NCBI GenBank assembly: GCA_002780895.1
Contig: PEUB01000036.1
Span: forward strand, 5,547 to 69,546
DNA: 64,000 bases
Source: Nitrospirae bacterium CG02_land_8_20_14_3_00_41_53
GTDB taxonomy: Bacteria > Nitrospirota > Thermodesulfovibrionia > Thermodesulfovibrionales > SM23-35
Direction of reading: 5' to 3'
In this document: positions 12,365 through 38,106 of the stretch, piece by piece
Numbering within the stretch: the first letter of the stretch is position 1
How the letters are laid out: each line of letters begins with the position of its first letter
Notes under the pieces: generated by a model
What the model was told of the DNA's origin: nothing
The model's input: only the letters and a program-made list of their open reading frames with translations
Databases searched by the model: none
Program-made: the position numbers and the translations under genes

Positions 12365-12807
12365 GCTCTTACTGGTGGATGTTCATTAATCAAGAGCCAA
12401 TAAAGCCCTATATGTTTAACAGTCTCAACAAACTGGTTAAAGTCAACCGGCTTTTTTATATAACTGTTAACCCCTAAGTCATAGCTCTCTACGACATCCC
12501 TCTCTTCCTTTGATGATGTGAGAACCACGACAGGGATGAGTTTGCGCCTTCTGTCTACCTTTATCCTCCTCAGGACATCTATTCCGTCTACCTTAGGTAG
12601 TTTAAGGTCGAGCAGTATAAGGCCAGGAAGAGGGTGAGATGGATTAGAATACTTCCCTGTATAGAAGAGATAATCGAGTGCCTCCTGTCCATCACGAACA
12701 ATTTCAACAAGATTAACAATATTGTTTTTTTTGAGTGCATGAATAGTTAGTTCTACATCATCAGGGTTATCCTCTACTAAAAGAATATTTACATTTCCAT
12801 TAATCAT
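12361..12807 (-). CDS. Single-domain response regulator (CheY-like)
   Basis: 148 aa with [23 protein letters not shown] and a conserved K. It overlaps both neighbours by 4 nt, suggesting operon coupling. Confidence 0.9.
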
Positions 12808-14930: not shown

Positions 14931-14974
14931 TCTAATTTAAAAATTCTCTTAGCTTGCTAAAGGGGTTCCTTATA

Positions 14975-14999
14975 TCATTCCCACGAAAGCAGGAATGAC
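14975..14999. repeat. Single GTCAT-family hairpin (tcattcccacgaaagcaggaatgac)
   Basis: Imperfect stem attcc(cac)/(gca)ggaat with a GAAA loop, bounded by tcat/atga. Intergenic, between panB and the kinase gene. Confidence 0.7.
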
Positions 15000-15055
15000 G
15001 AAAAACAAATTATAACATTATGTTTTAATACCCTGCGGTCTTGCCGCAAGATGAT

Positions 15056-15856: not shown

Positions 15857-15900
15857 TTTTAACCCTTAAATTTTAAAAATAGATTTTAACATAAAACATA

Positions 15901-23439: not shown

Positions 23440-23443
23440 AAAA

Positions 23444-23527
23444 GAGCTAAGAGCTAAGAGCTAAGGCAAAAAACTCCATGCTCTTTGCTATTCGCTCTAT
23501 GCTAATTGCTCTTTGCTCTTTGCTAAA
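23444..23527. repeat. Heptad-phased array element (12 units of 7 nt) in the acsE-acsD spacer
   Basis: gagctaa x3, ggcaaaa, aactcca, tgctctt, tgctatt, cgctcta, tgctaat, tgctctt x2, tgctaaa. It belongs to the same family as 7095..7164, in opposite orientation. Confidence 0.85.
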
Positions 23528-23539
23528 GAGGAGGTTGAA

Positions 23540-24481
23540 ACGGCTTTTGCCCCACCAAAAGATACTTATTCAGGTAAGGTTTACTCAGTAAATATCGGCA
23601 CTGCCTCAGGAGAAGTTACCTTTGGAGGTGAGAATATACTTCCATTCCATACCTTTGAAGGTGTAGCGCCGAACAGACCTCTTATTGCATTTGAGATACA
23701 GGATGTTCCCCCAACTGACTGGCCAGAAAATGTACAAAAACCGTATAAGGATGTTTCGAATGACCCTGTATCATGGGCAAAATTTTGTCAGGATACTTTA
23801 AAGGCCAGGGCCATAGCGCTCAGGCTCATAGGCACGCACCCTGATAGGGAGAATCGTTCGCCTGAGGATGCAGCAAAGACTGTCAGGGATGTTCTTTCTG
23901 CAATAAGCATTCCGTTGATTATACTCGGAAGTAACCATGCTGAGAAGGATGCCTCTGTTTTAATTGCTGCTGCAGAGGCTGCAAAAGACAGGAACTGTAT
24001 TATAGGTAAGGCACAGGAGGCGAATTATAAGACGATTGCTGCTGCTGCAATGGCTAACAAACACAAATTGATTGCTATGTCTGAGCTTGATATAAATCTT
24101 TCGAAACAGTTGAACATCCTTATCACACAGATGGGGTTTGACAAAGAGAGATTAATTACAGACCCGATGTGTTCGGCCCTCGGGTACGGTCTTGAATATA
24201 CCTATTCGGTTATGGAGAGGATAAGGCTTGCTGCCCTTACACAGAATGATATAACCATGCAGCCACCAATGTTGGGTGACATAGGGATGTATGTCTGGAA
24301 GGTAAAAGAGGCGCAGGCTAGCGAAGCAGATTTACCTCAGTGGGGTTCTTTAGAAGAGAGAGGAATAGCATGGGAGGCTGTTACAGCAACAGCATTAATT
24401 ATAGCTGGTGTTGAACTTCTTATAATGCGTCACCCCAAGGCTGTTGAAGCAGTAGAAAAGGTGATTGAAGAACTTGTTTAA
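23540..24481 (+). CDS. acsD: Corrinoid/iron-sulfur protein small subunit (AcsD/CdhD-like)
   Basis: ORF 23513..24481 with VTFGGENILPFHTFEG and a TIM-barrel-like remainder. The only canonical in-frame start (TTG 23513) lies inside the repeat array and has no SD. A strong SD (GGAGG, 23530..23534) sits 5 nt before an in-frame ACG at 23540. The 5' end is therefore uncertain. Confidence 0.85.
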   Translation, partial: TAFAPPKDTYSGKVYSVNIGTASGEVTFGGENILPFHTFEGVAPNRPLIAFEIQDVPPTDWPENVQKPYKDVSNDPVSWAKFCQDTLKARAIALRLIGTHPDRENRSPEDAAKTVRDVLSAISIPLIILGSNHAEKDASVLIAAAEAAKDRNCIIGKAQEANYKTIAAAAMANKHKLIAMSELDINLSKQLNILITQMGFDKERLITDPMCSALGYGLEYTYSVMERIRLAALTQNDITMQPPMLGDIGMYVWKVKEAQASEADLPQWGSLEERGIAWEAVTATALIIAGVELLIMRHPKAVEAVEKVIEELV

Positions 24482-24483
24482 TG

Positions 24484-24688
24484 ATAAATTCTAAATTCGA
24501 AATACTAAATTCTAAACAAATTCAAGATCCAGATGTTTAAAACTGACAACCATACTGTCATTCTGAGCGGTAGCGAAGAATCTCTTCTTATGTCAGACCC
24601 TTCGCCTTTGGCTCAGGGTGACACTAAAGTGTCATTTTGGGTATTTGATATTGTTTAGTATTTCGTGCTTAGGATTTTGAGAATTTCT
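24484..24688. repeat. Composite about 205-bp palindromic element between acsD and acsC
   Basis: Outer heptad-phased arms (24484..24525, ctaaatt cgaaata ctaaatt ctaaaca; complementary arm 24635..24688, ttgtttagtatttcg...tttgagaattt). They enclose a GTCAT-type element (24557..24622, inverted ends gtcattctgagc / gctcagggtgac) and a 6-bp hairpin at 24619..24634. Confidence 0.85.
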
Positions 24689-24702
24689 CTTGGAGGGTTG
24701 GG

Positions 24703-26055
24703 ATGGCTTTAACTGGCGTTGAAATATTTAAACTCCTACCAAAAACAAATTGTAAGAAGTGCGGGTTCCTTACATGTCTTGCCTTTGCAATGAAACTTGC
24801 CCAGAGGCAGGCCTCCTTAGATTTATGCCCTGATGTCTCTGAAGAAGCAAAACAGAAACTCGGTGAGGCATCTGCTCCTCCTGTAAGACCGATTATATTC
24901 GGTGCAGGTGATAGGTCGGTTAAGATGGGCGAGGAGACAGTGCTTTTCAGACATGATAAAAGGTTTGTTAACCCGTCTGTTTTTGCACTTGAAATAAAAG
25001 ATACATTTTCAGAAGCTGATATAAATAGTAAGATTGAGGAAGTTCTTAACTCAGAAATAGACAGGGTAGGTCAAAAACTGAGGATTGATGCAGTAGCTAT
25101 TATAAATGAATCTAATGACGTAAGAAGGTTTGAGGCTGCTTCAAAGATTATTGCAATAAAAGCACCTGACATCCCTGTAATTATCTGTACAGCCAATCCT
25201 CAGGCTGCTGAGGCAGCGGTAAAACTATTTACAGATAAGAAGCCAATCATATATGGAGTAAATTCAGAAAATACAGAGGCAATGGTCAATATCGCAAAGA
25301 CATATAAAGCAACTCTCGGTGTGGCGGCAAAATCACTTGATGAACTATCTGTCCTTACAGAAAAAGTCAAAGCAGCCGGTGTTGCTGATATAGTAATAGA
25401 TTCGGGTGCAAGGAATGCAAAGGAAATCATAGAGCATAATACATTAGTCAGAAGGGCAGCTATAAGGAAGAATTTCAAACCCCTCGGTTATCCTGTCATA
25501 ACCTTTGCACAGCGTGAAGATAGCCTTGTCGAGGTGCTTATAACAGTAATTGGGGTTGCAAAATACTCTTCAATAATTGTCCTGAGCAGTATTGAGAAGT
25601 GGAAGAACCTTGCCTTATTTACTTTGAGGCAGAATCTCTATACAGACCCACAGGTTCCGATGCAGGTTGAGCAGAAGGTTTATAAGTTTGGTGAACCAAA
25701 ATCTAATTCGCCATTGCTTATTACAACGAATTTTTCTCTTACTTATTTTATAGTCTCGGGAGAGGTTGAAAACAGTAAGGTCCCGAGTTATCTTGCTGTT
25801 ATGGATTGTGAAGGTCTTTCGGTACTTACAGCATGGGCAGCAGGGAAGTTTACAGCGGCAAGGATCGCACAGTTCATAAAGGAAAGCGGGATAGAAAATG
25901 ATATAAACGATAGGGAGCTTGTTATCCCTGGCTATGTGGCGATACTAAGCGGCGCAATAGAGGATAAACTTGAAGGCTGGAAAGTGACTGTTGGCCCGCG
26001 AGAGGCTAATGCAATACCAGCATTCTTAAAATCTAGGATGGCAAGCAAAAAATAG
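24703..26055 (+). CDS. acsC: Corrinoid/iron-sulfur protein large subunit (AcsC/CdhE-like)
   Basis: 450 aa with the N-terminal 4Fe-4S motif CKKCGFLTCLAFAM...C, followed by TIM-barrel and B12-binding regions. GGAGGG RBS. Confidence 0.92.
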   Translation: MALTGVEIFKLLPKTNCKKCGFLTCLAFAMKLAQRQASLDLCPDVSEEAKQKLGEASAPPVRPIIFGAGDRSVKMGEETVLFRHDKRFVNPSVFALEIKDTFSEADINSKIEEVLNSEIDRVGQKLRIDAVAIINESNDVRRFEAASKIIAIKAPDIPVIICTANPQAAEAAVKLFTDKKPIIYGVNSENTEAMVNIAKTYKATLGVAAKSLDELSVLTEKVKAAGVADIVIDSGARNAKEIIEHNTLVRRAAIRKNFKPLGYPVITFAQREDSLVEVLITVIGVAKYSSIIVLSSIEKWKNLALFTLRQNLYTDPQVPMQVEQKVYKFGEPKSNSPLLITTNFSLTYFIVSGEVENSKVPSYLAVMDCEGLSVLTAWAAGKFTAARIAQFIKESGIENDINDRELVIPGYVAILSGAIEDKLEGWKVTVGPREANAIPAFLKSRMASKK

Positions 26056-26079
26056 TGAATATTTTATTAGGAGGTCAGG

Positions 26080-28278
26080 ATGTCTAAGTTAATAGCCTCA
26101 GCTGCTATAAAAGGTGCACATACGCTTGTTAAAAAGGCTGAGGATATGCTCCAGAAGGTTATCGTTGAAAAAGGTGAAGACTTCGCTTTTGAATTTCCTG
26201 ACACAGCTTTTTATCTTCCGATGATTTATGCAATGACAACCTTCCCAGTTAAAACACTTGGGGATATGAGGGTTGCGCTGGGTATGGCAAAGGAACTGCT
26301 TCATGAAGAGCCGGAAGAGCATTTATGGAAGCCGTATCTCGGCGAGGCGCTGGACTCAGGGATGGCAACACTCTTTGCTGAAGAGATAATTCTCGCATTA
26401 AAGTATATCAACGGTCTTGAACCAGCAAAAGACACTGAGACAGGCTATGTTTATAATGGATTCATCACCGATACTATCCAGAGGAATCTGGGCATCCAGC
26501 TCGTTGACGGCACGATGCCAGGCTTTGCAGTCATTATAGGCGCGGCTCCGAATGACGAAACAGCGGTAAATATCGTCAGGAAACTTCAGGGAAAGAATAT
26601 TCTCACATTCCTCTCAGGACATGTAAACGGTAACAGCGTTACAAAACAGCTCCTGAGAAAAGGTGTTGAATTAGGATGGGACACAAGAATCGTCCCTCTC
26701 GGGCCCGATACCGAGCACGCACTTTATGCAGCAGACTGGGCAATAAGGGCGTCCCTGATATACGGAGGCAAAAAACCCGGCGATTACAAAGAACATCTCA
26801 AATACCAGAAAGACAGGGTCTTTGCATTTGCAGTGGTTCTTGGTGAACTTGATGACATAATATGGACTACAGGCGCAGGAGCAATTAACATGGGATTCCC
26901 GGCAATATGCGACACTGACGTGCCGGTGATACATCCGACAGGTGTATGTATTTATGAAGAGGTAGAGAAAGAGCTTGACCACAACAAGATCGTGCAGAAG
27001 GCAATAGAGGTTAGAGGTTTGAAGATTATCGTTGAGAAACCACCTATCCCTGTTGCATATGGCCCGGCATTTGAGGGTGAAAGAATAAGGAAAGAAGATA
27101 TGTTCTTAGAGTTTGGCGGTACTCGTACACCTTCATTCGAATGGGTAAGAATGAGGGGAATGGAGGATATAGAGGACGGTAAGGTTGTAGTTGTTGGAAA
27201 TAATTGGCAGGAGAGATATGAAAAGGGTGGTGAGATGCCACTCGGAATAGTTGTTGATGTTGCAGGTAGAAAAATGCAGAAAGATTTCGAGCCGGTTATA
27301 GAAAGAAAGATTCATTCTAATATCAATGAGGCTCAGGGTGTATGGCATATGGGTCAGAGGGATATAAACTGGATGAGAATAAGTCATAATGCTAAGAAGG
27401 AAGGATTTACCCTTGAGCATCTCGGAATAATCAATGCTACTATGACCCACCACAGATTCAGGGCAATTGTGGATAAGGTTCAGGTAACGATTTATACAGA
27501 TGGGTCGGATGTATTAAGACTTATGGAAGAGGCAAGAAGTGTTTACAAAGAGCGTGACCAGAGGCTCGGCGGACTCGTAGATGAGGCAGTTGATATATTC
27601 TATTCGTGTCTCCTCTGTCAATCTTTTGCACCAAGCCATGTATGCGTAATAAGCCCTGAAAGGCTTGGTCTCTGCGGGGCATATAGCTGGCTTGATTGTA
27701 AGGCTGCATTCGAGATAGACCCAACAGGTGGGAATCAGCCAATAATAAAGGGAGAGCTTCTGGATGAAAGATATGGCAGATATACTGGCATTGACGAATA
27801 TCTGAAGAAGGCATCAGGGGGTGCGGTCGAGACGCTTAACCTTTATACCATAATGGAAAATCCCATGACCTCATGTGGTTGTTTTGAATGCATTATTGCG
27901 ATAATTCCAGAGGCAAACGGTGTGATGATAGTTCAGCGTGGTCATACAGAAATGACACCTGTAGGGATGAAATTTTCGACATTGGCAGGTAGTGTTGGCG
28001 GAGGCACACAGAATCCTGGGTTTATGGGAATTGGAAGGAACTTTATAGTCAGTAAAAAGTTTCTCCATGGTGACGGGGGAATTAAAAGGATAGTCTGGAT
28101 GACAAAGAATTTGAAAGAAAGTCTTAAAGAAGCATTTGAGAAAAGGGCTGAAGAGGAAGGTGTCCCTGATCTTCTTGATAAGATAGCTGATGAGACAGTG
28201 GCCGAAGACTCAGAAAAATTACTCGAGTTTCTCACAAGTGTAGGACATCCAGCACTTGAGATGGAACCTATGTTATGA
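26080..28278 (+). CDS. acsB: Acetyl-CoA synthase (A-cluster subunit, AcsB/CdhC)
   Basis: 732 aa with A-cluster cysteines CLLCQSFAPSHVC...C and SCGCFEC. AGGAGG RBS. Confidence 0.95.
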   Translation: MSKLIASAAIKGAHTLVKKAEDMLQKVIVEKGEDFAFEFPDTAFYLPMIYAMTTFPVKTLGDMRVALGMAKELLHEEPEEHLWKPYLGEALDSGMATLFAEEIILALKYINGLEPAKDTETGYVYNGFITDTIQRNLGIQLVDGTMPGFAVIIGAAPNDETAVNIVRKLQGKNILTFLSGHVNGNSVTKQLLRKGVELGWDTRIVPLGPDTEHALYAADWAIRASLIYGGKKPGDYKEHLKYQKDRVFAFAVVLGELDDIIWTTGAGAINMGFPAICDTDVPVIHPTGVCIYEEVEKELDHNKIVQKAIEVRGLKIIVEKPPIPVAYGPAFEGERIRKEDMFLEFGGTRTPSFEWVRMRGMEDIEDGKVVVVGNNWQERYEKGGEMPLGIVVDVAGRKMQKDFEPVIERKIHSNINEAQGVWHMGQRDINWMRISHNAKKEGFTLEHLGIINATMTHHRFRAIVDKVQVTIYTDGSDVLRLMEEARSVYKERDQRLGGLVDEAVDIFYSCLLCQSFAPSHVCVISPERLGLCGAYSWLDCKAAFEIDPTGGNQPIIKGELLDERYGRYTGIDEYLKKASGGAVETLNLYTIMENPMTSCGCFECIIAIIPEANGVMIVQRGHTEMTPVGMKFSTLAGSVGGGTQNPGFMGIGRNFIVSKKFLHGDGGIKRIVWMTKNLKESLKEAFEKRAEEEGVPDLLDKIADETVAEDSEKLLEFLTSVGHPALEMEPML

Positions 28279-28282
28279 GACA

Positions 28283-28403
28283 GTCATTAGTTACACCCCT
28301 CACCCTAACCCTCTTCCGCAAGGGGAGAGGGGACTTATTTTATTATCCCCTCCCTTGACGGGAGGGGATAGAGGGGAGGGTGAACTACTGATGACTAATG
28401 ACT
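28283..28403. repeat. Composite TIR-bounded element filling the acsB-cooS spacer
   Basis: 10-nt perfect terminal inverted repeats agtcattagt / actaatgact enclose two GC-rich palindromes. These are 28294..28334 (cacccctcaccc-taa-ccctcttcc-gcaa-ggggagagggg) and 28343..28382 (ttatcccctccc-ttgac-gggaggggata-gaggggagggtg). Confidence 0.85.
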
Positions 28404-28418
28404 TGATATGGAGGATAT

Positions 28419-30410
28419 ATGGAGAAAAAAATAGTAAAGAGTGCGAATGAAGCTGCTGAACAGATTATAGAGTGGGGTGAATCCCACGGTATAGAGACAT
28501 GCTTTGACAGGGCACAGAGACTTAAACCATGCCCTATCGGCGCTGCCGGTGCATGCTGTAAGACATGTCACATGGGACCCTGTAGGTTTGTTGGAAAGAA
28601 TGCCGAAGAGGAGGCAAGAGGGGTATGTGGCGCTACGCTGCCTACAGTTGCTTCAAGAAATCTGCTTAGAATGGCAATAGCAGGATCAGCAGCACATACG
28701 GACCATGCGAGAGATATGGCCTTTATCCTGCTTGCTGTTGCCAATGGGGAGACAAGTGATTTTAGAATAACCGATGTGAGAAAGCTTTATAAGGTTGCAG
28801 GAATCCTTGATATAGAGTTTGGAAATGGAATGGCTGTCAATGATGTTGCAAGAGATGTCGCGCTGAGATTAATTAAAGATTTCGGAAGGCAGAAGGGAGA
28901 GTTAAATTATATTAAAAGAGCTCCCAATAAGACTCAGGAAAGATGGAAAAAGTGGGGTATTACTCCAAGAGGAATTGACAGGGAAATAACAGAGGCAATG
29001 CATCGCACTCACATGGGTGTTGACCATGCCCCTGATAACCTTCTTTTAAGCGCCCTCAGGGTTTCCCTCGCTGATGGCTGGGGAGGTTCTATGATCTCAA
29101 CTGATATTACAGATATTCTTTTTGGTACTCCTCGACCAGTAAAGGCAGAGGCGGGTTTTGGGATATTTAAAGAAGATGAGGTCAATATTGTTGTGCATGG
29201 ACATGAACCCTCACTTGCAGAAATGATTGTGGATGTAGTAAATGAACCTGAGATGATTGCATATGCAAAATCAAAGGGTGCAAAGGGAATAAATCTTGGT
29301 GGCATGTGCTGTACTGCAAATGAGGTATTAATGAGGCACGGGATCCCAACAGCAGGTGGATTTACAAATCAGGAGTTAGCGATCATGACAGGACTCATTG
29401 ATGCAATAACAGTTGATGTCCAGTGTATAATGCCTGCATTAGTAGAACTTTCAAGGAAATTTCATACAAAGGTAATTACCACATCTTATAAGGCAAAAAT
29501 ACCGGGTGCTGTTCATATTGAATATGACGAGCACAGGGCGAAGGAAATCGCAAGGGAGATAGTAAAGTTTGCTATAGATAACTATCCTAATAGAAAGGCA
29601 GAAGGGATACATATAAATCAGAAATTTCCGGTTATAGCAGGTTTTTCACATGAATATATTGAATATATGCAGGGAGGTAGATGGAGGGCATCCTTCAGGC
29701 CATTGAATGATGCAATTATGGCAGGTAGGATTCGTGGAGTTGTTGGTCTTGCAGGTTGTGACAATCCACGGGTTCCTTCACAAGGGCTTCATCGCTTTCT
29801 TGCAGTTGAGCTAATCAAGAATGATGTGCTTATACTATCAACAGGGTGTGGATCTCATGCATGTGGGACCGCGGGATATCTTATACCAGAGATGGCATTG
29901 GAAAATGCCGGTCCAGGATTAAGAGAGGTATGCGAGGCAATAGGGGTTCCTCCTATCCTTCACCTTGGCTCATGTGTAGATAATTCAAGAATTTTAACGA
30001 TTGTCTCTGCAATGGCAGCAGAAGGCGGCCTCTCTGATGAGATTGGGGGTATGCCTGTTGTAGGTATTGCCCCTGAATGGATGTCAGAGAAGGCGATTTC
30101 TATCGGGTGTTATCTCGCTGCATCAGGCGTCCCTGTGATATTTGGCGGTGAATCACCAGTGAGTGCAAGTGAGGAAGTAACTAAGATAATGACAGAGGTA
30201 TGGTTTGAAAGATTCAAGGGTGCGTTACATTTTGAGCCTGACCCTGAAAAAATACTGAGCCTTACCCTTGAATATATAGATAGGGCCAGGGAAGCACTTA
30301 AACTTAGAAAATATGAACCCGGCAAGTTTGGCGCTGAAAGGGTTCTTCTGGATATGGCTGCAAGGCGTGAACTTGAAAAGGCAGCTAAGCCGCATATAGG
30401 AATATATTAG
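28419..30410 (+). CDS. acsA: Anaerobic Ni-Fe-S carbon monoxide dehydrogenase catalytic subunit (CooS/AcsA)
   Basis: 663 aa with an N-terminal D/B-cluster motif CPIGAAGACCKTCHMGPCR and C-cluster region motifs (HGHEP, GGMCCTANE, GCDNP, GSCVDNSR). Confidence 0.95.
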   Translation: MEKKIVKSANEAAEQIIEWGESHGIETCFDRAQRLKPCPIGAAGACCKTCHMGPCRFVGKNAEEEARGVCGATLPTVASRNLLRMAIAGSAAHTDHARDMAFILLAVANGETSDFRITDVRKLYKVAGILDIEFGNGMAVNDVARDVALRLIKDFGRQKGELNYIKRAPNKTQERWKKWGITPRGIDREITEAMHRTHMGVDHAPDNLLLSALRVSLADGWGGSMISTDITDILFGTPRPVKAEAGFGIFKEDEVNIVVHGHEPSLAEMIVDVVNEPEMIAYAKSKGAKGINLGGMCCTANEVLMRHGIPTAGGFTNQELAIMTGLIDAITVDVQCIMPALVELSRKFHTKVITTSYKAKIPGAVHIEYDEHRAKEIAREIVKFAIDNYPNRKAEGIHINQKFPVIAGFSHEYIEYMQGGRWRASFRPLNDAIMAGRIRGVVGLAGCDNPRVPSQGLHRFLAVELIKNDVLILSTGCGSHACGTAGYLIPEMALENAGPGLREVCEAIGVPPILHLGSCVDNSRILTIVSAMAAEGGLSDEIGGMPVVGIAPEWMSEKAISIGCYLAASGVPVIFGGESPVSASEEVTKIMTEVWFERFKGALHFEPDPEKILSLTLEYIDRAREALKLRKYEPGKFGAERVLLDMAARRELEKAAKPHIGIY

Positions 30411-30453
30411 TGTAGCCGCACCCTTTAGGGTGCGTTTATTATAGCAGGCTACA
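30411..30453. repeat. TGTAGCCGC-family hairpin element
   Basis: tgtagccgcaccctttagggtgcg...gcaggctaca, immediately after the cooS stop. Related to 21908..22002. Confidence 0.75.
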
Positions 30454-30467
30454 TTTTTGGAGGTTAA

Positions 30468-30953
30468 ATGATAATAGAAGAGATTGAAATTGATGAACAA
30501 ATAGGAGAGGTTGGTAGAATACTTAGTAAGCAGGAAAGGAAGAGAGGATTACTGATACATGTTCTCCAACAGATTCAGGAGAATGATGGTTATTTGCAGG
30601 AAGAAGTTTTAAGGAGGCTTTCTAAAAACCTCAATATTTCGCTTGCTGAGATTTATAGTGTTGCAAGTTTTTACAAAATGTTCCACTTCAAACCCAGAGG
30701 CAGAAAAATTGTAAGGGTTTGTCTTGGCACGGCCTGTTACGTAAGAGGATCAAAAAAGATTTTAACAACACTTGAAGAAGAGTTTGGTATAAAGAACGGA
30801 GAAACAACCGAAGACCTTGCTATGACTTTAGAGACAGTAGGATGTATAGGTTGTTGTGGACTTGCGCCTGTTACTATGATTAATGAGGAAATTATAGGTG
30901 AAATCGGAACAAAAAAAATAGAAGGAATAGTTAACGCGATAAAAGAAGAATAA
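30468..30953 (+). CDS. NuoE/HydC-like thioredoxin-fold [2Fe-2S] protein
   Basis: 161 aa with CLGTACYVRGS...GCIGCCGLAP cysteine pattern. GGAGG RBS. Confidence 0.88.
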   Translation: MIIEEIEIDEQIGEVGRILSKQERKRGLLIHVLQQIQENDGYLQEEVLRRLSKNLNISLAEIYSVASFYKMFHFKPRGRKIVRVCLGTACYVRGSKKILTTLEEEFGIKNGETTEDLAMTLETVGCIGCCGLAPVTMINEEIIGEIGTKKIEGIVNAIKEE

Positions 30954-30966
30954 TAAAAAGGAAATT

Positions 30967-33294
30967 ATGAAAAGATTTAATAGTGTTAACGACCTAATTT
31001 CCTATAGAAAACTACTTCTTACAGAAGGATTATTAATCCCGGGGAAGAACAGGATTAAAGTTTGCTGTGGTACAGCGTGTGGTGCATCAGGTTCTCACAA
31101 GGTTGTAAGGGCATTAGAGGATTACCCTAAAAGCGATTTAGATATTGAACTCATAAAGACAGGGTGTCAGGGTCTTTGTCAAAAAGGTCCTGTTATGAAG
31201 GTCGAACCATATGATTATTTCTATCAGAAAGTCAGTCCTGATAAAGCATCAGAGATACTCTCCACATATATAACAGGACTCCCTGCACGAGACCTTCTTT
31301 ATAGAGAATCATTCATCAATCCTCCGATTGAGAAGATGGAGGGGGTGCCTTTTTATAAGAAGCAGTTAAGAGTTGTACTTAGAAATAATGGAAGGATAGA
31401 TCCCTGTAATATATCCCACCATATTGCTGTTGGTGGGTATTTAGCAATTGAGAAGATATTTTCCTCAATGACTCCAGAGCAAGTTCTTGATGAGGTAAAA
31501 AAGGCAAATATCAGGGGTCGAGGTGGTGCAGGATTTCCAGCTGGCATAAAATGGGGATTCGCTAAAAAGTCTCCTGTTTCAAATAAGATGGTAATAGCCA
31601 ACGGTGATGAAGGTGACCCTGGCGCTTTTATGGACAGGTCAGTTATGGAGGGTGACCCTTTCAGCTTGCTTGAGGGGATGCTTATATGTGCCTATGTAAT
31701 TTGCGCACATTACGGGTTTATTTATGTCCGTCATGAGTATCCACTTGCTGTTAAGAATCTGGGTATAGCAATTAAGAAGGCAGAGGAAATTGGACTCTTG
31801 GGTAAAAATATCCTCGGGACAGGGTTTGATTTTACAGTTCACATAAGGGAAGGCGCTGGAGCTTTTGTATGTGGCGAGGAGACAGCACTCATGGCATCAG
31901 TCGAGGGAGAAAGGGGATTTCCAAGACCAAAACCTCCATTTCCTGCTGAGAGTGGTCTATGGAATAGCCCTACGATTATTAACAATGTTGAGACACTTGT
32001 AAATATTCCTTATATTATAGAAAAGGGAGCAGATTGGTTTCTGAGTATGGGGACACAAAATTCACCAGGGACGAAGGTCTTTGCCCTTACAGGAAAGGTT
32101 GTTGACACAGGGCTTGTTGAGGTACCTATGGGAATAACCCTCAGGGAGATTATCTTCGATATTGGTGGAGGAATTATAAATAATAAAAAGTTTAAGGCAG
32201 TACAGACAGGAGGGCCTTCAGGTGGATGCATTCCCGAGCAATATCTTGATCTGCCTGTAGATTATGATTCTCTTGCAAAGGTTGGTTCGATAATGGGTTC
32301 AGGCGGAATGGTAGTGATGGATGAGGATAACTGCATGGTAGATATTGCTAAGTTTTTCCTCTCCTTTACACAGTCTGAGTCATGCGGGAAATGTCCGCCA
32401 TGCCGAATTGGGACATATCAGATGCTCCAAATCCTTGAAAAAATAACGTCTGGTAATGGTGAGCCTGGAGATATAGAGAAACTTGAGAAGCTCGGGAAAC
32501 TTGTAAAGACAGGCTCTCTTTGTGGCCTTGGCCTGACTGCACCAAATCCAGTGCTAACAACAATTAAATATTTCCGTGAAGAATACGAAGAGCACATACA
32601 TGATAAATACTGCAGGGCAAAGGTTTGTAGCGGTCTTGGCATGTTTATCATAGAACAAAGTGAATGTATCCTTTGTGGTCTATGCAAGCAGGCATGTGCC
32701 TTTGATGCAGTTAAGGAGACGAGAAGGAGATTCTTTATTGACCAGGATTACTGCACAAGGTGTAAGGCTTGCTACCTTGCATGTCCCACAGGTGCTGTGA
32801 AGATAAAGAAGAAAAGACATGTAAGGCTTGAAGAGGTATTCGGGATACCACCTGAAAGCATAGAAATCATGGAAAGGAGATGTAGAATGACATTAAGAGA
32901 TATCTTAAAATCAAAACCGCCTATGATCGTGACTATTCAAAAAAATCGCACTATTAGAGATGCAGTATATACCATGAGCGAGAAGAATGTCAGCGGGATT
33001 TTTGTGGTTGATGAAAATAATAAATTGGCAAGTATATTTACGGAAAGGGATATTGTGCGATGTGTTTTTAATAATATATCTCTCGATGAGACTATCGAGA
33101 ATATAATGAGACGTGATATTACAACATTTGATCCCTCGACAGAAATAAGTTCAGCAATAACGGTCGCTTCAAGAAAGAAGATCAGACATATACCTGTTGT
33201 GGAAGGAGATAACATTGTGGGAATGATTACTTTTAGGGATTTAGTTTCATATCTGCTTCCAGAAATCTGCTATATGTCAGAAGCACTTTATTGA
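30967..33294 (+). CDS. NuoF/HydB-like FMN- and NAD(P)H-binding FeS subunit with N-terminal 2Fe-2S domain, C-terminal 2x[4Fe-4S] and a fused CBS pair
   Basis: 775 aa. Motifs: CCGTACGASGS...GCQGLCQKGP; RGRGGAGFPAG; ANGDEGDPGAFMDR; ESCGKCPPCRIGT; CILCGLCKQAC / CTRCKACYLACP. The C-terminal ~135 aa is a tandem CBS region (IFVVDENNKLASIFTERDI, IPVVEGDNIVGMITFRDL). Confidence 0.88.
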   Translation: MKRFNSVNDLISYRKLLLTEGLLIPGKNRIKVCCGTACGASGSHKVVRALEDYPKSDLDIELIKTGCQGLCQKGPVMKVEPYDYFYQKVSPDKASEILSTYITGLPARDLLYRESFINPPIEKMEGVPFYKKQLRVVLRNNGRIDPCNISHHIAVGGYLAIEKIFSSMTPEQVLDEVKKANIRGRGGAGFPAGIKWGFAKKSPVSNKMVIANGDEGDPGAFMDRSVMEGDPFSLLEGMLICAYVICAHYGFIYVRHEYPLAVKNLGIAIKKAEEIGLLGKNILGTGFDFTVHIREGAGAFVCGEETALMASVEGERGFPRPKPPFPAESGLWNSPTIINNVETLVNIPYIIEKGADWFLSMGTQNSPGTKVFALTGKVVDTGLVEVPMGITLREIIFDIGGGIINNKKFKAVQTGGPSGGCIPEQYLDLPVDYDSLAKVGSIMGSGGMVVMDEDNCMVDIAKFFLSFTQSESCGKCPPCRIGTYQMLQILEKITSGNGEPGDIEKLEKLGKLVKTGSLCGLGLTAPNPVLTTIKYFREEYEEHIHDKYCRAKVCSGLGMFIIEQSECILCGLCKQACAFDAVKETRRRFFIDQDYCTRCKACYLACPTGAVKIKKKRHVRLEEVFGIPPESIEIMERRCRMTLRDILKSKPPMIVTIQKNRTIRDAVYTMSEKNVSGIFVVDENNKLASIFTERDIVRCVFNNISLDETIENIMRRDITTFDPSTEISSAITVASRKKIRHIPVVEGDNIVGMITFRDLVSYLLPEICYMSEALY

Positions 33295-33325: not shown

Positions 33326-35422
33326 ATGAAAAGACTCGATAGTATTGATGACCTTATTGTCCTCCGTAACCTTCTATTAAAAGAAGGGGTATTAGCCCCT
33401 GGTAAAAAAAGGATAAAGGTTTGTTGTGGGCTTCCCTGTAGCACCTTGGGTTCCCATGAAGTTACAAAGGAATTAGAGAATGAAATCTCTAAGAACAGTC
33501 TGGATATCGAAGTGATAAAAACAGGATGCCAGGGTCTTTGCCAGAGAGGACCCCTTATAAAGACCGAACCATATAATTATTTCTATCAGAAAGTCAGTCC
33601 AGAAAAAGTAGGAGAGATTATATCTAAGACCTTTTTAGCAGGACGACCTGTAAGAGAGTGTCTTTTCAGAGATTCTTTTCTTGAGCCACCCAAAGAAGTA
33701 ACTGAAGAGATTCCTTTTTATAAGAAGCAGCTGAAGGTTGCACTCAGGAATACTGGTTGTATAGACCCGCATAGTATATCTCACTATATTGTAACCGGCG
33801 GGTATATGGCTATTGAAAAGATATTTTCCTCCATGAGCCCAGAACAAGTACTTGAGGAGGTAACAAAGGCTAACCTCAGGGGCCGGGGTGGTGCAGGGTT
33901 CCCCGCAGGGAAAAAGTGGAAACATACCAAAAGTTCTCGTTGTGACATAAAATTTGTGATAGCCAATGGTGATGAAGGTGACCCTGGCGCTTTTATGGAC
34001 AGGTCTGTCATGGAAGGTGATCCTCACAGCCTGCTCGAGGGAATGCTTATATGTGCTTATGCAATTAGTGCACATTATGGGATTATTTATGTCCGTCACG
34101 AGTACCCTCTTGCCATTAAGAATTTGGGAATAGCTATTAATCAAGCGCAGGAGCTTGGGCTTATAGGTAAAAATATCCTCGGGACAGGATTTGATTTTAC
34201 AGTTCACATAAGGGAAGGCGCGGGTGCCTTTGTGTGCGGTGAATCTACTGCTCTTATTGCATCGGTAGAAGGAGAAAGGGGTATGCCGCGACCAAGACCT
34301 CCGCGACTTTCTGAAATTGGAGGAGGGGTTTGGGGATATCCAACTAATTTGAATAATGTAGAGACTTATGCTTGTATGCCTCAAATAATCGAGAAGGGAG
34401 CCGATTGGTTCCTGAATATAGGAACAGAAAATTCACCTGGTACAAAAGTATTTTCTCTTGCAGGAAAGGTTAAAAATACAGGGCTTATTGAAGTGCCTAT
34501 GGGGATAACCCTGAGGGAGATCATATTCGATATTGGGGGAGGAATATTAAATAATAAGAAATTCAAGGCAGTGCAGACAGGAGGGCCTTCGGGCGGGTGT
34601 ATCCCTGAGCAATATCTTGATCTGCCTGTAGATTATGATTCTCTTGCAAAGGTTGGCTCAATAATGGGTTCAGGTGGAATGGTCGTAATGGATGAGGACA
34701 ACTGTATGGTAGATGTTGCTAAGTTTTTCCTCTCCTTTACACAGGCTGAGTCATGCGGGAAATGTCCTCCATGCAGGATAGGTACATACCAGATGCTCCA
34801 AATCCTCGAAAAGATAACATTAGGCAATGGAGAGGAAGGAGATATAGGAAAACTTGAAAGGTTTGGGAAACTTGTAAAGGCAGGTTCCCTCTGTGGTCTT
34901 GGCCAGAATGCACCAAACCCTGTTCTTACGACCATCAAATATTTCCGTGAAGAATACGAAGAGCATATAAGAGATAAATATTGCAGGGCAAAGGTCTGCA
35001 CCGGACTCGGATTACTCTCAATAAACACTGAAATCTGCTACCAGTGTATGCGCTGCATGGATACATGTCCATTTGAGGCAATAAAAGAATCCAGGGAAGG
35101 TGGATTTTATATAGACCAGGTGCTCTGCCAGAGATGTAAGGCATGCTATATGGCATGTCCCTTAGGCGCTATAGAGATTAAAGAACAGCCCTTTACCTAT
35201 ATAGATACAGAGCTATGCTATCTCTGCGGCCGCTGTAAAGATGTATGCAGGATTAATGCAATAAAGGAAACTTCAACCGGATTCATGATAGATCGCTTTG
35301 TATGTAGGAAGTGCGGTGATTGTTACAATATATGCCCTATGGGAGCTGTGAGGTTTGAGAAAAGAACCCACCCCCCTGTGTCCCCCCTTAGTAAGGGGGG
35401 AATTAAAGAGGGGTGCCCTTAG
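33326..35422 (+). CDS. Second NuoF/HydB-like subunit (tandem paralog) with C-terminal polyferredoxin extension
   Basis: 698 aa with the same core motifs as the upstream paralog. Four CxxCxxCxxxCP-type clusters follow at the C-terminus. The last ~17 aa (HPPVSPLSKGGIKEGCP) are encoded by a GC-rich palindromic repeat. Confidence 0.88.
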   Translation: MKRLDSIDDLIVLRNLLLKEGVLAPGKKRIKVCCGLPCSTLGSHEVTKELENEISKNSLDIEVIKTGCQGLCQRGPLIKTEPYNYFYQKVSPEKVGEIISKTFLAGRPVRECLFRDSFLEPPKEVTEEIPFYKKQLKVALRNTGCIDPHSISHYIVTGGYMAIEKIFSSMSPEQVLEEVTKANLRGRGGAGFPAGKKWKHTKSSRCDIKFVIANGDEGDPGAFMDRSVMEGDPHSLLEGMLICAYAISAHYGIIYVRHEYPLAIKNLGIAINQAQELGLIGKNILGTGFDFTVHIREGAGAFVCGESTALIASVEGERGMPRPRPPRLSEIGGGVWGYPTNLNNVETYACMPQIIEKGADWFLNIGTENSPGTKVFSLAGKVKNTGLIEVPMGITLREIIFDIGGGILNNKKFKAVQTGGPSGGCIPEQYLDLPVDYDSLAKVGSIMGSGGMVVMDEDNCMVDVAKFFLSFTQAESCGKCPPCRIGTYQMLQILEKITLGNGEEGDIGKLERFGKLVKAGSLCGLGQNAPNPVLTTIKYFREEYEEHIRDKYCRAKVCTGLGLLSINTEICYQCMRCMDTCPFEAIKESREGGFYIDQVLCQRCKACYMACPLGAIEIKEQPFTYIDTELCYLCGRCKDVCRINAIKETSTGFMIDRFVCRKCGDCYNICPMGAVRFEKRTHPPVSPLSKGGIKEGCP
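35367..35415. repeat. GC-rich nested palindromic element forming the 3' end of the NuoF-2 gene
   Basis: cccacccccc-tgt-gtcccccc-ttagtaa-gggggg-aattaaa-gaggggtg. The stop codon is at 35420..35422. Confidence 0.8.
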
Positions 35423-35439
35423 AAATATTTGGAGGAAAA

Positions 35440-36057
35440 ATGAGCGAAGAGAGTTTAATCGAGGAAAAGGAGAAAAAACTCGAGGACATAAGGAAAGAGG
35501 CTGAGGAAAAGGCATGTCTTGTTCAAAGGGCTCTATATTATGTTGAGGAATTCCTTGCAGGGCCTATGTGTGGCAGGTGCTATCCCTGTTCACTCGGAAC
35601 TTATGAAGCAAGGATCAGGTTAATCAGGATCAGCCAACATTTGGAAAATGTCAACGAGTCAGATATCAAGGCTCTTAAAAGAATCGGTTCAAAGATGATG
35701 GAGGGTTCATTTTGTAAAAAGGGAAAAGATACAGGTAAGTTTATTATCGAGACACTTACAAGTTCAGAGGAGGAGATCAATCAGCATCTTTCAGGTATCT
35801 GTCCAAAAAAGGAATGTATCAACCTTATTGAATATGTGATAAATCCTGAATTGTGTATCATGTGTGGAAAATGTTTAGAGACATGTAAATATGATGCAAT
35901 AATAGGTGAAAAAAGAGAGCCCTATCTTTCTGGATACCTTCCTTTTGAGATAAGGCAGAAGAGGTGTACAAGGTGCGGAGAATGTATTAAAGTTTGCCCT
36001 GCAGAGGCGATTGAGGTTATAACGACGAAAATAGAGGAATTAGTTAGCAGCAAATAA
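35440..36057 (+). CDS. FeS protein: NuoF C-terminal (4Fe-4S N3-type) helical domain homolog fused to 2x[4Fe-4S] ferredoxin
   Basis: GGAGG RBS plus ATG at 35440 (MSEESL). MCGRCYPCSLGTYEARIRLIRI parallels ESCGKCPPCRIGTYQMLQILEKI of the NuoF paralogs. CIMCGKCLETC and CTRCGECIKVCP follow. Confidence 0.75.
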   Translation: MSEESLIEEKEKKLEDIRKEAEEKACLVQRALYYVEEFLAGPMCGRCYPCSLGTYEARIRLIRISQHLENVNESDIKALKRIGSKMMEGSFCKKGKDTGKFIIETLTSSEEEINQHLSGICPKKECINLIEYVINPELCIMCGKCLETCKYDAIIGEKREPYLSGYLPFEIRQKRCTRCGECIKVCPAEAIEVITTKIEELVSSK

Positions 36058-36084: not shown

Positions 36085-38106
36085 ATGGAAAAATTGATTA
36101 AACTTCAAATAGACGGCAGAGAGGTTCAAGTACCTGAAGGGATGAACATTATTGATGCAGCAGAACTTGCAGAGATTCATATACCTAATCTCTGTTATCT
36201 CAAAGGGATGAAGGGGATCGGTGCTTGCAGGCTCTGTCTTGTGGAGATAGAAGGGATGAAGGCACCTGTAATAGCATGCAATACAAAGGCTAAGGATGGT
36301 ATGGTTGTTAATACAAAAACTGATAAGGTTCAAGAGATCAGGAAATTTGTCGTAGACCTTATCCTTTCAATGCACCCACTCGATTGTATGACATGTACAA
36401 AGGCAGGGGTATGCAACCTTCAGAAATATGCCTATGACTTTGAACTTAAGGAATCGAGCTTTACAAGAAAAAGGATGGGCTATCCAACTGATGAAGCAAA
36501 TCCATTTATAAAGAGAGATCCCGAATATTGTATACTGTGCGGCAGGTGTGTCAGGGTATGCAAAGAACAGGGGACGAATGTACTCGCGTTCATGGGAAGA
36601 GGTGTCGGAGCAAAAGTTATCACTGCAAATGACAAGCCACTTCAGGAATCGGAGTGCACATTCTGTGGAAGCTGTCTTGATGCGTGTCCAGTAAATGCCC
36701 TCCTTGAGGCAGACAGATGGCGTAAAGGCAGGGAGTGGGAGTATGAAAGAATCAATTCTGTTTGTCTTTTGTGCGGCAATGGCTGCGACATCATAGTAAG
36801 CACTAAAGATGGCAGTGTGCAGAAGATTAGCGCAGGGGCACCGAAGGGCTCTGCGGAAAGATATATTTGTGCCTATGGCAGATTTGGTTTTGACTCTATT
36901 GAGGCAGAGACGCGCCTTACATCTCCCATGAAAAGGGTAAACAGTGAACTCAAAGAGACTACATGGGAAGACGCCCTCAGTATAGTTGCTGATAAATTAA
37001 AAAAAGCTGGCAAGGGAGCAGGCTTTATAAGCATTGCTGGCATAGAAAATGAAGATGCGATAACCCTGAAAAAGCTTGCTAAAGATGTTGTTAAGACAAA
37101 GAATTTCGACACAACTATGAGTCTCTATGCAGAGAGTGATTCTCTAAAAAACTCTCAAACAGCAGACATCAATAAGGCAGACCTTATTGTACTTGTCGGT
37201 CTAAATCCTTCCCAGTGGGAAAGGATTTTACCTGCACTTGATGCCTCTGTAAGAAGAAGGGTTGACAGAGGGGCAAAGCTTGTTGTCATAAATTCCTCTG
37301 ATACAAAAATCGGAGAGGCAGCAACAATAAATATTATAGGAAACGAGACATCCATTCTGAAACGTATTGCAAAGGCTTTAATAGGAAAGGGACTGAAAGC
37401 AGATAAAAAGTTAGAGGCTTCTGTCAAAGACGTAGAACTATCAGAGGAGATCGAAAAGGCAGCAACATTTATTGCTGAGGCAAAGGAGCCGGTACTATTG
37501 AGTTCTCCTTCACTTTTTGATGCATCAGCCAATATTGCGCTGATGAAAGGAAAGATCATTACTGTTGGCCTTGAAAGCAATGCGCATGGTGTTGCCCTGA
37601 TGGGGTTGACGACAGAGGGGAAAACTTATAAGGAAATGGTCTCTGATGGGATGAAAGTCCTTTATGCTGTCGGTGAAGTTCCTTTAAACAAAAGACCGGA
37701 TACGGATTTCCTCATAGTGCAGAACTCACATCTTACAGAACTTGCTAAACAGGCGGATGTTGTACTGCCTTCAGCGACTTTCCTTGAATCTGCTGGTACA
37801 ATAATAGATTATATGGGAAGACTGAAATATCTTCCAAAGGTAATAGAACCTCAGGGAGAATCAAAAAGCCACAGAGATATTTTTATCCATCTTGCAAAGA
37901 TTATGGGAGCCACAATTAAAAGACCTGCAGAGGCCGAGGTTAAAAAGGCGTCAAAGGTGGAGACCAAACTTATATTCAGCCCGTTTACTAAAAAAGAAGG
38001 GCTTGATATATCGCCAAATGAGATAATCGAATCTGTCAATGCCTCTGTTATTAATGGTTCAAGACTTTTGTGGCTTAAAGAGGCTGAAAAGGCAGTGGCT
38101 GTGTAA
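36085..38106 (+). CDS. NuoG/HylA-like polyferredoxin with short molybdopterin-oxidoreductase-type domain
   Basis: 673 aa. It has an N-terminal 2Fe-2S (CYLKGMKGIGACRLCLVEI...C), a His-ligated cluster region (HPLDCMTCTKAGVCNLQ), 2x[4Fe-4S] (CILCGRCVRVC, CTFCGSCLDACP) and CLLCGNGCDI. There is no H-cluster domain and no in-frame TGA. Confidence 0.8.
   Translation: MEKLIKLQIDGREVQVPEGMNIIDAAELAEIHIPNLCYLKGMKGIGACRLCLVEIEGMKAPVIACNTKAKDGMVVNTKTDKVQEIRKFVVDLILSMHPLDCMTCTKAGVCNLQKYAYDFELKESSFTRKRMGYPTDEANPFIKRDPEYCILCGRCVRVCKEQGTNVLAFMGRGVGAKVITANDKPLQESECTFCGSCLDACPVNALLEADRWRKGREWEYERINSVCLLCGNGCDIIVSTKDGSVQKISAGAPKGSAERYICAYGRFGFDSIEAETRLTSPMKRVNSELKETTWEDALSIVADKLKKAGKGAGFISIAGIENEDAITLKKLAKDVVKTKNFDTTMSLYAESDSLKNSQTADINKADLIVLVGLNPSQWERILPALDASVRRRVDRGAKLVVINSSDTKIGEAATINIIGNETSILKRIAKALIGKGLKADKKLEASVKDVELSEEIEKAATFIAEAKEPVLLSSPSLFDASANIALMKGKIITVGLESNAHGVALMGLTTEGKTYKEMVSDGMKVLYAVGEVPLNKRPDTDFLIVQNSHLTELAKQADVVLPSATFLESAGTIIDYMGRLKYLPKVIEPQGESKSHRDIFIHLAKIMGATIKRPAEAEVKKASKVETKLIFSPFTKKEGLDISPNEIIESVNASVINGSRLLWLKEAEKAVAV

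Follow-up and report, generated by a model that had tools for sequence, protein, structure and literature searches.

Flavin-based electron bifurcation gives energy-starved anaerobes low-potential ferredoxin, and to our knowledge no small-molecule allostery is known for the bifurcating HydABC/Bfu-family enzymes. The HydB/BfuB-type subunit of these enzymes has been solved in several complexes, among them NiFe-HydABCSL of Acetomicrobium mobile (7t2r_B), FeFe-HydABC (7q4v/8a6t/7p5h), Stn (8oh5_B) and NfnABC (9n5u_B). In a solved Bfu enzyme, ferredoxin docks at the C-terminal domain of NfnB, and bifurcation is gated as the C-terminal domain of NfnC moves (PMC12018979). A hypothetical class, Codh-Bfu, comprises four sequences from Firmicutes only, with carbon monoxide dehydrogenase (CODH) genes placed between bfuB and bfuA (Schut et al. 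2022, PMC9304861); CBS domains are mentioned nowhere in that survey. Here we describe a BfuB-type gene of Nitrospirae bacterium CG02_land_8_20_14_3_00_41_53 that lies downstream of the genes for CODH/acetyl-CoA synthase (CODH/ACS) and ends in a pair of CBS domains. It is located in a stretch of 64,000 nucleotides (assembly GCA_002780895.1, contig PEUB01000036.1, positions 5,547 to 69,546 of the forward strand), hereafter the window. We put the probability at about 0.55 that this gene carries a sensor CBS pair on the BfuB subunit of a NuoEFG-like complex, gives rise to two products, and tunes electron flow at CODH/ACS.

The host gene, bfuB1-CBS, has the following architecture (FMN, flavin mononucleotide; AF2, AlphaFold2 model).

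30967-33294, + strand: bfuB1-CBS, HydB/BfuB-type NAD(P)H-FMN iron-sulfur subunit with a C-terminal CBS pair (open reading frame of 775 residues; Pfam)
31042-31269, + strand: N-terminal thioredoxin-like [2Fe-2S] domain, residues 26-101 (PF01257)
31495-32010, + strand: FMN/NAD(P)H-binding domain (Complex1_51K), residues 177-348 (PF01512, E = 2e-43)
32341-32595, + strand: NuoF-type [4Fe-4S] four-helix domain (NADH_4Fe-4S), residues 459-543 (PF10589, E = 1e-32)
32650-32802, + strand: ferredoxin-like 2x[4Fe-4S] domain, residues 562-612 (Fer4 family matches)
32809-32886, + strand: linker of two short helices, residues 615-640, about 25 residues (AF2)

Up to the last iron-sulfur domain, this architecture follows that of the characterized bifurcating enzymes. 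The domain order of the solved HydB/BfuB proteins is shared over residues ~27-612 (E = 1e-228 to 1e-187), the best match in the Protein Data Bank (PDB) being the NiFe-HydB chain 7t2r_B (E = 1e-228), followed by FeFe-HydB, Stn and NfnB, and genes for NuoE-like and NuoG-like partners are adjacent here too. In contrast, the PDB alignments with HydB, NfnB and Stn end at query residues ~611-614, where the solved chains stop (no more than 3 residues past the iron-sulfur domain), whereas bfuB1-CBS runs on for another 160 residues, made up of the linker and the CBS pair. The cysteines of the [2Fe-2S] domain (C33, C38, C67, C71), those of the NuoF-type domain (C473, C476, C479, C519) and all eight of the 2x[4Fe-4S] domain (567, 570, 573, 577, 596, 599, 602, 606) are unchanged in 63 homologues. 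The N-terminal [2Fe-2S] center is the predicted ‘B5’ site, typical of bifurcating-type BfuB.

The NuoF subunit of complex I (Nqo1, NDUFV1) also matches (PDB search, E about 1e-110), through homologous FMN/NADH and [4Fe-4S] domains. Unlike NuoF, however, our protein has extra N- and C-terminal iron-sulfur domains as well as the CBS pair, and it falls under all curated NuoF cut-offs (TIGR01959, 480.1 versus 558.65 bits; NF008436, 394 versus 749; NF010120, 376 versus 389). Membrane-arm genes are not nearby either: no nuoH or nuoJ-N gene occurs in the region examined, which is flanked by acs/cooS upstream and ybeY/phoH downstream. With its FMN/NAD(P)H and NuoF-type [4Fe-4S] domains, the extra iron-sulfur domains at both ends and the adjacent BfuC and BfuA genes, bfuB1-CBS clearly belongs by its domain make-up with the Bfu-type BfuB proteins rather than with NuoF of complex I. 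Its product would be the NAD(P)H/FMN subunit of a NuoEFG-like iron-sulfur flavoprotein complex that probably performs electron bifurcation or confurcation.

The C-terminal extension was first pointed out in an earlier note made from the DNA letters, which described a tandem CBS region of ~135 residues after the 2x[4Fe-4S] domain of the first of two NuoF-like paralogues, fused to a NuoF/HydB-like flavoprotein that adjoins CODH/ACS. Pfam, AF2 and Foldseek agree with that description, and acsE-cooS do lie upstream. Positions 32887-33294 translate into 135 residues and a stop, forming the in-frame C-terminus (residues 641-775) of bfuB1-CBS and not a separate open reading frame. The family CBS PF00571 is found in two stretches (E = 3.1e-23), and its 82.3 bits against a cut-off of 24 settle the profile check that the note had proposed. 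The pair is laid out as follows.

32893-33069, + strand: CBS motif 1, residues ~643-701 (first PF00571 stretch; AF2 secondary structure)
33037-33051, + strand: invariant F691-T692-E693-R694-D695 in CBS motif 1 (residue counts)
33088-33261, + strand: CBS motif 2, residues ~708-765 (best PF00571 stretch, 710-764)
33184-33195, + strand: invariant R740-H741-x-P743 in CBS motif 2 (residue counts)
33220-33243, + strand: G752-x-x-T/S755-x-R757-D758-L759 in CBS motif 2 (residue counts)
33250-33294, + strand: conserved C-terminal helix and tail Y762-L-L-P765-E766-I-C-Y, then the stop (residue counts)

In the AF2 model built with 63 homologues, residues 641-765 form two beta-alpha-beta-beta-alpha units with a predicted local distance difference test (pLDDT) of about 81-92, and the module modelled alone reaches a mean pLDDT of 85; over both models the units span 81-95. 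Foldseek superposes it on solved CBS pairs with probability 1.0, E values down to 2e-13, template-modelling (TM) scores of 0.64-0.75 and root-mean-square deviations of 1.4-2.8 Å. The predicted fold and cleft, the other property that the note had asked to be inspected, thus bear it out: the ribose/phosphate signature h-h-T/S-x-x-D is kept in both motifs, as IFTERD (690-695) and MITFRD (753-758).

Conservation is concentrated at these sites. Among the window sequence and 72 full-length fused orthologues, whose CBS identity falls to 42%, T692, E693, D695, R740, H741, G752, R757, D758, L759, P765 and E766 are unchanged in 73 of 73; position 755 is T or S in 71. In the tail, Y762, L764, P765 and E766 vary little or not at all, and the tail also occurs in free-standing CBS homologues. 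By the Nei-Gojobori method with ten relatives, the ratio of nonsynonymous to synonymous substitution (dN/dS) ranges over 0.05-0.17 in the CBS pair, 0.03-0.09 in the core and 0.07-0.15 in the iron-sulfur domain, while the linker is the fastest-evolving part of the protein (0.19-0.84); these values are rough because dS is often saturated. Judged by these ratios, the CBS pair is under purifying selection. A disulfide or redox switch was considered and rejected because no pair of cysteines is conserved: C699 is present in 67 of 73 sequences, C768 in 30 and C639 in 4.

The same pattern bears on whether the module is purely structural, oligomerizing or scaffolding BfuB subunits, protomers or a partner, with no regulation by a ligand. 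CBS pairs generally dimerize, the conserved C-terminal helix and tail could be an interface, and the varied copy number and form of CBS in these operons (two fused, fused plus free, split) would fit a need for stoichiometric pairing. However, the invariant residues cluster at the T/S-x-x-D and R-H positions of the ligand cleft rather than in the helices, and pure scaffolds tend to lose such residues; the recruitment of this particular type of domain would also be left unexplained. We therefore regard a structural role alone as unlikely and prefer a sensor CBS pair, in keeping with the general logic by which a Bateman module on an enzyme or transporter is an allosteric sensor.

Enzymes often carry fused CBS domains; what differs here is the host, a NuoF/HydB-type flavoprotein being new for the module. 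We found a CBS pair in no solved or characterized HydB, NfnB, Stn, FdsB or NuoF (PDB search and literature), full-text searches of the searchable literature for ‘CBS domain’ together with NuoF, HydB, bifurcation or Wood-Ljungdahl returned no relevant description, and no NCBIfam model in a scan of the protein spans the NuoF-CBS fusion. That the fusion was unfamiliar in characterized HydB or NuoF proteins, as the note had put it, is in line with these searches. Of its reservation that the architecture might prove common and already characterized, the first part applies (at least 120 clusters and 77 loci) and the second does not. The combination of CBS and BfuB is therefore new in our comparisons, with the CBS pair itself an ordinary family member; automatic annotation had already flagged the CBS domain, which makes the sequence fact public and leaves the fusion unstudied.

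The fusion is retained throughout a single clade. PF00571 is present in all 120 of the closest homologues (69-100% identity; at least 120 clusters at 90% identity). The few that are named are proteins from Nitrospirae/Thermodesulfovibrionales metagenome-assembled genomes (MAGs), automatically labelled ‘NuoF’ or ‘CBS domain-containing protein’ (JGI/NCBI). A search with residues 459-775 through 1.84 billion representatives (50% identity) gave a single full-length one (P0121, 779 residues) that spans the NuoF end as well as the CBS pair, the others being fragments, so the fusion belongs to one clade; a free-standing CBS pair of 140 residues (P0127) is 64% identical. Scanning one genome per species gave at least 557 matches to CBS patterns, of which the best 80 loci were mapped by BLAST. 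Nitrospirota/Thermodesulfovibrionales MAGs account for almost all of these best loci, a few others bearing Desulfobacterota or Nitrospinota labels, and 77 loci from species-representative genomes carry the fusion. On these counts, the CBS fusion and its conservation are far beyond chance.

The BLAST map of the best loci reveals a conserved module order of NuoE-like gene, BfuB-CBS, small iron-sulfur subunit and NuoG-like gene, with cooS upstream in 43 of the 54 loci that have enough flank. A tally of bfuC upstream (31 of 64) was set aside, being an artefact of overlapping stop-to-stop reading frames. The link of the bfu module to acetyl-CoA synthesis thus appears strong but not universal. This proximity is also one ground for picturing the CBS pair as a docking adaptor that binds another protein (CODH/ACS, ferredoxin or, as for plant CBSX, a thioredoxin-like protein), the other being that CBSX1/2 are among the Foldseek matches. 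Such an adaptor is very unlikely, given that about 20% of loci keep the CBS pair with no adjacent cooS and that no partner gene other than the Bfu subunits co-varies with it across the mapped loci.

Operons of this family differ in how the CBS pair is supplied (loci are given by our handles). The commonest form has a single BfuB-CBS. Two BfuB-CBS genes stand in tandem in L001, L003, L004, L006 and L039, or are split by the small subunit in L029 and L034. In L032, L038, L055 and L064, BfuB-CBS is followed by a free-standing CBS-pair gene, and a BfuB lacking CBS is accompanied by a free CBS gene in L019, L040 and, at the second paralogue, L002. The window, L005, L007, L008 and L069 combine BfuB-CBS with a BfuB that has an extra ferredoxin-like domain. 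Fused, split and duplicated forms at one operon position are a classic sign that the CBS pair would work with BfuB, and their variety suggests that the number of CBS pairs per complex may matter. We also noted a distant free CBS-pair open reading frame of 149-154 residues, 30-32% identical to the CBS pair of the window, next to the bfu module in L075 (between cooS and bfuC) and L073 (- strand).

Beyond what the earlier note described, the junction between linker and CBS pair contains a conserved ribosome-binding site and start codon at 32887, which are new here as a candidate internal start.

32872-32879, + strand: internal Shine-Dalgarno GAAAGGAG, in codons E636-R637-R638, 7 nucleotides before the ATG of M641 (sequence)
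32887-32889, + strand: ATG of M641, first codon of the CBS module, putative internal start (2.0 bits at all three bases)

The DNA of the junction reads GAA AGG AGA TGT AGA ATG, with AAGGAG at 32874-32879 followed by a 7-nucleotide spacer and the ATG. The free-standing CBS genes of other genomes begin at the homologous methionine, (M)TLKDIL. A strong Shine-Dalgarno sequence (AAGGAG or AGGAGG, spacer 6-7) together with ATG is kept in 62 of 64 fused genes from operons with a single CBS pair, as compared with none of the 12 first genes in operons that have a second CBS source (Fisher’s exact p = 3e-12, with the kinship of the genomes ignored). The losses took different routes. The Shine-Dalgarno sequence is gone from the first copies of L001, L004, L029, L032, L034 and L038; the start codon is gone in L002 (TCT), L003 (ACG), L039 (ACG) and L064 (CTG); and both are partly gone in L055 (TTG, no Shine-Dalgarno) and L006 (weak AGGA). 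The second CBS copy always retains its own Shine-Dalgarno sequence and start. At the nucleotide level, the synonymous third base of the arginine codon AGG is unchanged in 54 of 54 genes (2.0 bits, versus 0.05-0.8 at neighbouring third positions), and the Shine-Dalgarno sequence survives changes in the protein (AGT for Ser, GAC for Asp). This pattern implies selection for an in-frame internal start that would give a free as well as a fused CBS product.

It is also conceivable that only the fused protein is made, with the motif being a relic of the fusion, a protein-level constraint on E-R-R...M or a pause site that aids iron-sulfur folding. E636, R638 and M641 are indeed conserved as amino acids, and the window by itself offers little: AAGGAG-N5-9-ATG is observed 10 times against 4.9 expected, which is unremarkable, and the weakening of predicted RNA structure from -30 to +40 is slight (z about +1) and follows a dip in G+C. 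The case for the internal start consequently rests on the comparative data. There, dS is often >1 (saturated), yet the synonymous G of AGG is kept in all 54 genes, the Shine-Dalgarno sequence outlives amino-acid replacements, and exactly those 12 genes that have another CBS source are missing the motif or the ATG. A relic or a pause site is disfavored because neither explains the synonymous conservation or the decay exactly where the start has become redundant, and we consider a fused product alone doubtful. An in-frame Shine-Dalgarno sequence and ATG at a domain boundary inside an open reading frame is familiar from Escherichia coli ClpB, CheA-S and IF2-beta, where internal starts release a C-terminal domain; in contrast to these examples, the dual-product reading favored here comes from sequence comparison, through synonymous conservation and loss upon redundancy.

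The fold and the TERD and R(H/R)LPV motifs place the module with CBS pairs that bind adenosyl ligands (MJ1225, 3kh5/3lfz; 4FRY and 2RC3; AcuB; MJ0100; IMPDH; CBS-pyrophosphatase; OpuCA). Known ligands in this group are AMP, ADP, ATP and Ap4A for AcuB, S-adenosylmethionine (SAM) for MJ0100 and NAD+ for 4FRY and 2RC3; 3FHM may be a complex with AMP and NADH. By sequence, the closest solved proteins are MJ1225 (E = 2e-24, or 2e-33 with a profile), archaeal ribosome hibernation factors, 4FRY (phmmer E = 3e-16, profile E = 3e-22, 31-33% identity, TM 0.73), 2EF7, 2RC3 (TM 0.72) and 3FHM. T-E-R-D and R-H-L-P-V align with ITERD/FRRLPV in MJ1225, VTERD/MRHLPV in 4FRY and ITERD/IRHLPV in 2EF7. The Foldseek neighbors include complexes with AMP, ADP, ATP, Ap4A, SAM and NAD, among them AcuB, PAE2072 and CBSX2 as AMP/ADP/ATP complexes. 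The entries 9e6q, 9sr9, 9znf and 9zni, considered as a precedent for CBS in a redox complex, were set aside, since they are archaeal ribosome hibernation factors. Since ribose/phosphate-binding signatures persist in the clefts, sensing of a nucleotide is reasonable to propose, and we infer that the CBS pair would bind an adenosine-containing ligand.

Two such ligands lead. One possibility, which the note had suggested and which we put forward tentatively, is an adenylate energy-charge sensor in which AMP, ADP and ATP compete at the CBS pair, as in AMPK-gamma, MJ1225, AcuB and CBS-pyrophosphatase, and gate CODH/ACS electron flow by ATP supply. MJ1225, which we take to be an archaeal AMPK-gamma homologue solved with adenine nucleotides, is the best PDB match by sequence, and many of the Foldseek neighbors listed are AMP/ADP/ATP complexes. 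The R-H-x-P-V of the pair presumably resembles the H-R-x-P-V phosphate-binding motif of AMPK-gamma, and the Wood-Ljungdahl pathway spends ATP at formyl-tetrahydrofolate synthetase. However, relatives that are equally close hold NAD+, and sequence does not discriminate among adenosyl ligands. The other candidate is a redox sensor, in which the CBS pair would form a second, allosteric site for NAD+/NADH and adjust the enzyme to the NADH/NAD+ ratio by feedback. 4FRY and 2RC3 are among the top matches in both sequence and structure, 4FRY shares the TERD and RHLPV motifs, and both were deposited with NAD+ in a collapsed conformation (preprint). NAD(H) sensing is as plausible as energy-charge gating on the basis of these two relatives, yet as a specific assignment it is rather doubtful, since the NAD+ in these structural-genomics entries is of uncertain physiological relevance and MJ1225 and AcuB-type binders are as close. 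The evidence supports AMP/ADP/ATP and NAD(H) as leading candidates for the sensor pair and does not separate the adenylates from NAD(H). By analogy with the discussion of other CBS proteins from sulfate reducers, adenosine 5′-phosphosulfate (APS) is conceivable in this largely sulfate-reducing lineage, and SAM could conceivably be a further candidate.

The genes around bfuB1-CBS place the pair in a larger redox module.

22657-30410, + strand: acsE, acsD, acsC, acsB and cooS, the CODH/ACS genes (Pfam; directly upstream)
30468-30953, + strand: bfuC, NuoE/HoxE-like [2Fe-2S] subunit (PF01257, E = 1e-48; NCBIfam HoxE/NuoE)
33326-35422, + strand: bfuB2, second BfuB paralogue, with no CBS pair (alignment; Pfam Fer4 in four stretches)
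35413-36057, + strand: small iron-sulfur subunit of 214 residues, a free-standing C-terminal half of HydB (Pfam; PDB matches)
36085-38106, + strand: bfuA, NuoG-like subunit with [2Fe-2S], His-ligated and other [4Fe-4S] sites and a molybdopterin-like domain (Pfam)

The end of cooS and the start of bfuC are 58 nucleotides apart, and the acsEDCB-cooS order is the same in L001-L003 and most related loci. As in Codh-Bfu (PMC9304861), for which CO/CO2 was put forward as third substrate, genes of BfuABC type stand together with one for a Ni-CODH; in contrast to that class, the host belongs to Nitrospirota, cooS lies in a complete acs cluster that precedes bfuC, and a CBS pair is fused to BfuB. BfuA lacks the capping Molydop_binding domain and a recognizable catalytic site (Pfam) and scores 366 bits against NuoG TIGR01973, below the cut-off. 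Its PDB matches are the large subunit of Stn/Nfn, the N-terminal half of FdsA, NiFe-HydA and Nqo3. Formate dehydrogenase (FDH) was rejected as the third activity, given the missing Molydop_binding domain and NuoG as the best match. With no catalytic site in BfuA, the complex has no obvious catalytic site besides the flavin, which makes CODH the evident candidate for the third partner, by analogy with the hypothetical Codh-Bfu. In contrast to the solved Bfu complexes, this operon includes a second BfuB paralogue and a stand-alone ‘half-HydB’, and a hydrogenase, GltD or FDH catalytic part is missing from its BfuA. The small subunit, whose start overlaps the end of bfuB2 by 10 nucleotides, consists of a NuoF-type [4Fe-4S] and a 2x[4Fe-4S] domain matching HydB/NfnB residues ~430-600 in the PDB; its counterpart is absent from the solved Bfu complexes.

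The second paralogue, bfuB2, which the note had also placed downstream, is 70% identical to bfuB1 over its whole length, 83% in the catalytic core (residues 141-545) and 62% in the N-terminal 140 residues. Past residue ~614 the two diverge fully: bfuB1 has its CBS pair, and in bfuB2 a second 2x[4Fe-4S] ferredoxin-like domain occupies the attachment point. In L001, L003 and L004 the orthologue of bfuB2 has a CBS pair. In core and N-terminus, bfuB1 is similar to the paralogue that comes first in L001/L004 (identities of 0.85-0.86 and 0.62), the CBS pair of bfuB1 is nearer to that of their second paralogue (0.87-0.89) than to that of the first (0.78-0.80), and the core and N-terminus of bfuB2 resemble their CBS-bearing second paralogue, with the ferredoxin-like domain in place of CBS. 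The C-terminal modules of the two paralogues look shuffled (window; L001, L004, L005, L008). Third-codon-position identity between bfuB1 and bfuB2 is 0.70-0.80 in codons 401-480 (bfuB1 32167-32406) and 0.45-0.60 elsewhere, a hint that the tandem copies have undergone partial gene conversion. Inside bfuB2 lies a second in-frame AAGGAG-N8-ATG (34269-34285; codon 320, EGERGM), which looks like chance because bfuB1 has Phe there.

Several other observations concern the wider neighborhood. G+C-rich terminator-like hairpins with T-rich tails stand just past acsB (28309-28331) and just past cooS (30417-30434); they could be attenuators or mRNA stabilizers that set unequal expression along the acs-cooS-bfu row. 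PAS/HAMP histidine kinases and a hybrid kinase-receiver protein are encoded at 11204-17139 (- strand), about 5 kb upstream of the acs genes. In L046, L055, L062, L064, L066 and L068, a second, more distant NuoE/NuoF/NuoG-like set follows directly downstream of the bfu module, with a BfuB-like gene of ~600-680 residues that is 47-55% identical and has no CBS. A study of Lost City MAGs describes a ‘divergent FDH-like’ gene, its function unknown, in Thermodesulfovibrionales, Bipolaricaulota, ANME-1 and Methanosarcinaceae, with nuoEF and a CODH-like gene on its flanks and CBS unmentioned (10.1101/2022.01.25.477282); this row may be a related NuoG-like/NuoEF/CODH arrangement.

Taken together, these features are consistent with the following mechanism for a complex whose genes in most genomes directly follow those of CODH/ACS. 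The CBS pair is tethered by a helical linker of ~25 residues to the 2x[4Fe-4S] domain, the ferredoxin-docking place of solved relatives. Ligand binding would shift the packing of the CBS pair against this domain, and the shift would adjust electron flow along the low-potential branch serving the CO2/CO chemistry of CODH/ACS. From one mRNA, the internal start would add a free 15-kDa CBS pair to the full-length fusion, and free and fused copies, or a second fused copy, would pair into a dimeric CBS disc. In the first gene, the internal start would decay wherever the operon has another source of CBS, be it a BfuB-CBS paralogue or a CBS gene standing apart. The gating of ferredoxin docking in this scheme is drawn from chain connectivity and the behavior of CBS pairs elsewhere, because the iron-sulfur domain has a pLDDT <50 in AF2. 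A bolder form is possible and put forward tentatively: the gene would belong to the first allosterically gated member of the Bfu family, with a two-product CBS sensor on the ferredoxin-docking domain of BfuB switching the low-potential branch by energy or redox state, and a second gene copy replacing the internal start wherever there is one.

In addition to the window-scale count of the start motif and the G+C-dependent RNA signal, a number of points speak against a dual-product sensor at CODH/ACS. All family members come from MAGs and are known here from their genes alone. In the full-length AF2 model, the low pLDDT of the iron-sulfur domain (<50) and of the linker (~60; helices 616-625 and 629-639) means that the CBS pair is not reliably positioned and that its placement relative to the rest of the protein is unusable. 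The conserved cleft residues also occur in CBS pairs with no known ligand. A dimerizing holoenzyme could pair two fused CBS modules and dispense with a free copy. The contrast of 62/64 with 0/12 counts related genomes, so independent events are fewer, about five operon types, and L083 is a single-CBS gene with no ATG. Around a fifth of loci are not adjacent to cooS, and in the window co-transcription with CODH/ACS is not assured, because the hairpin at 30417-30434 separates cooS from the NuoE-like gene.

Thermodesulfovibrionales and related Nitrospirota are widespread in aquifers, sediments and lakes and are known almost only from MAGs. For these organisms, a conserved module of nucleotide-sensor type on a ferredoxin-docking domain, beside the carbonyl-branch genes of the Wood-Ljungdahl pathway, offers a concrete and testable candidate for regulation. 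The junction also provides an unusually clean comparative case for a functional internal start codon, one that appears to be kept synonymously when it is the sole source of the free domain and to decay once a second source exists. A sensor at the ferredoxin-docking end, combined with comparative evidence for a dual-product gene, would interest specialists. If the reading is true, the CBS pair would give these cells a way to match ferredoxin supply to their ATP or NAD(H) status.

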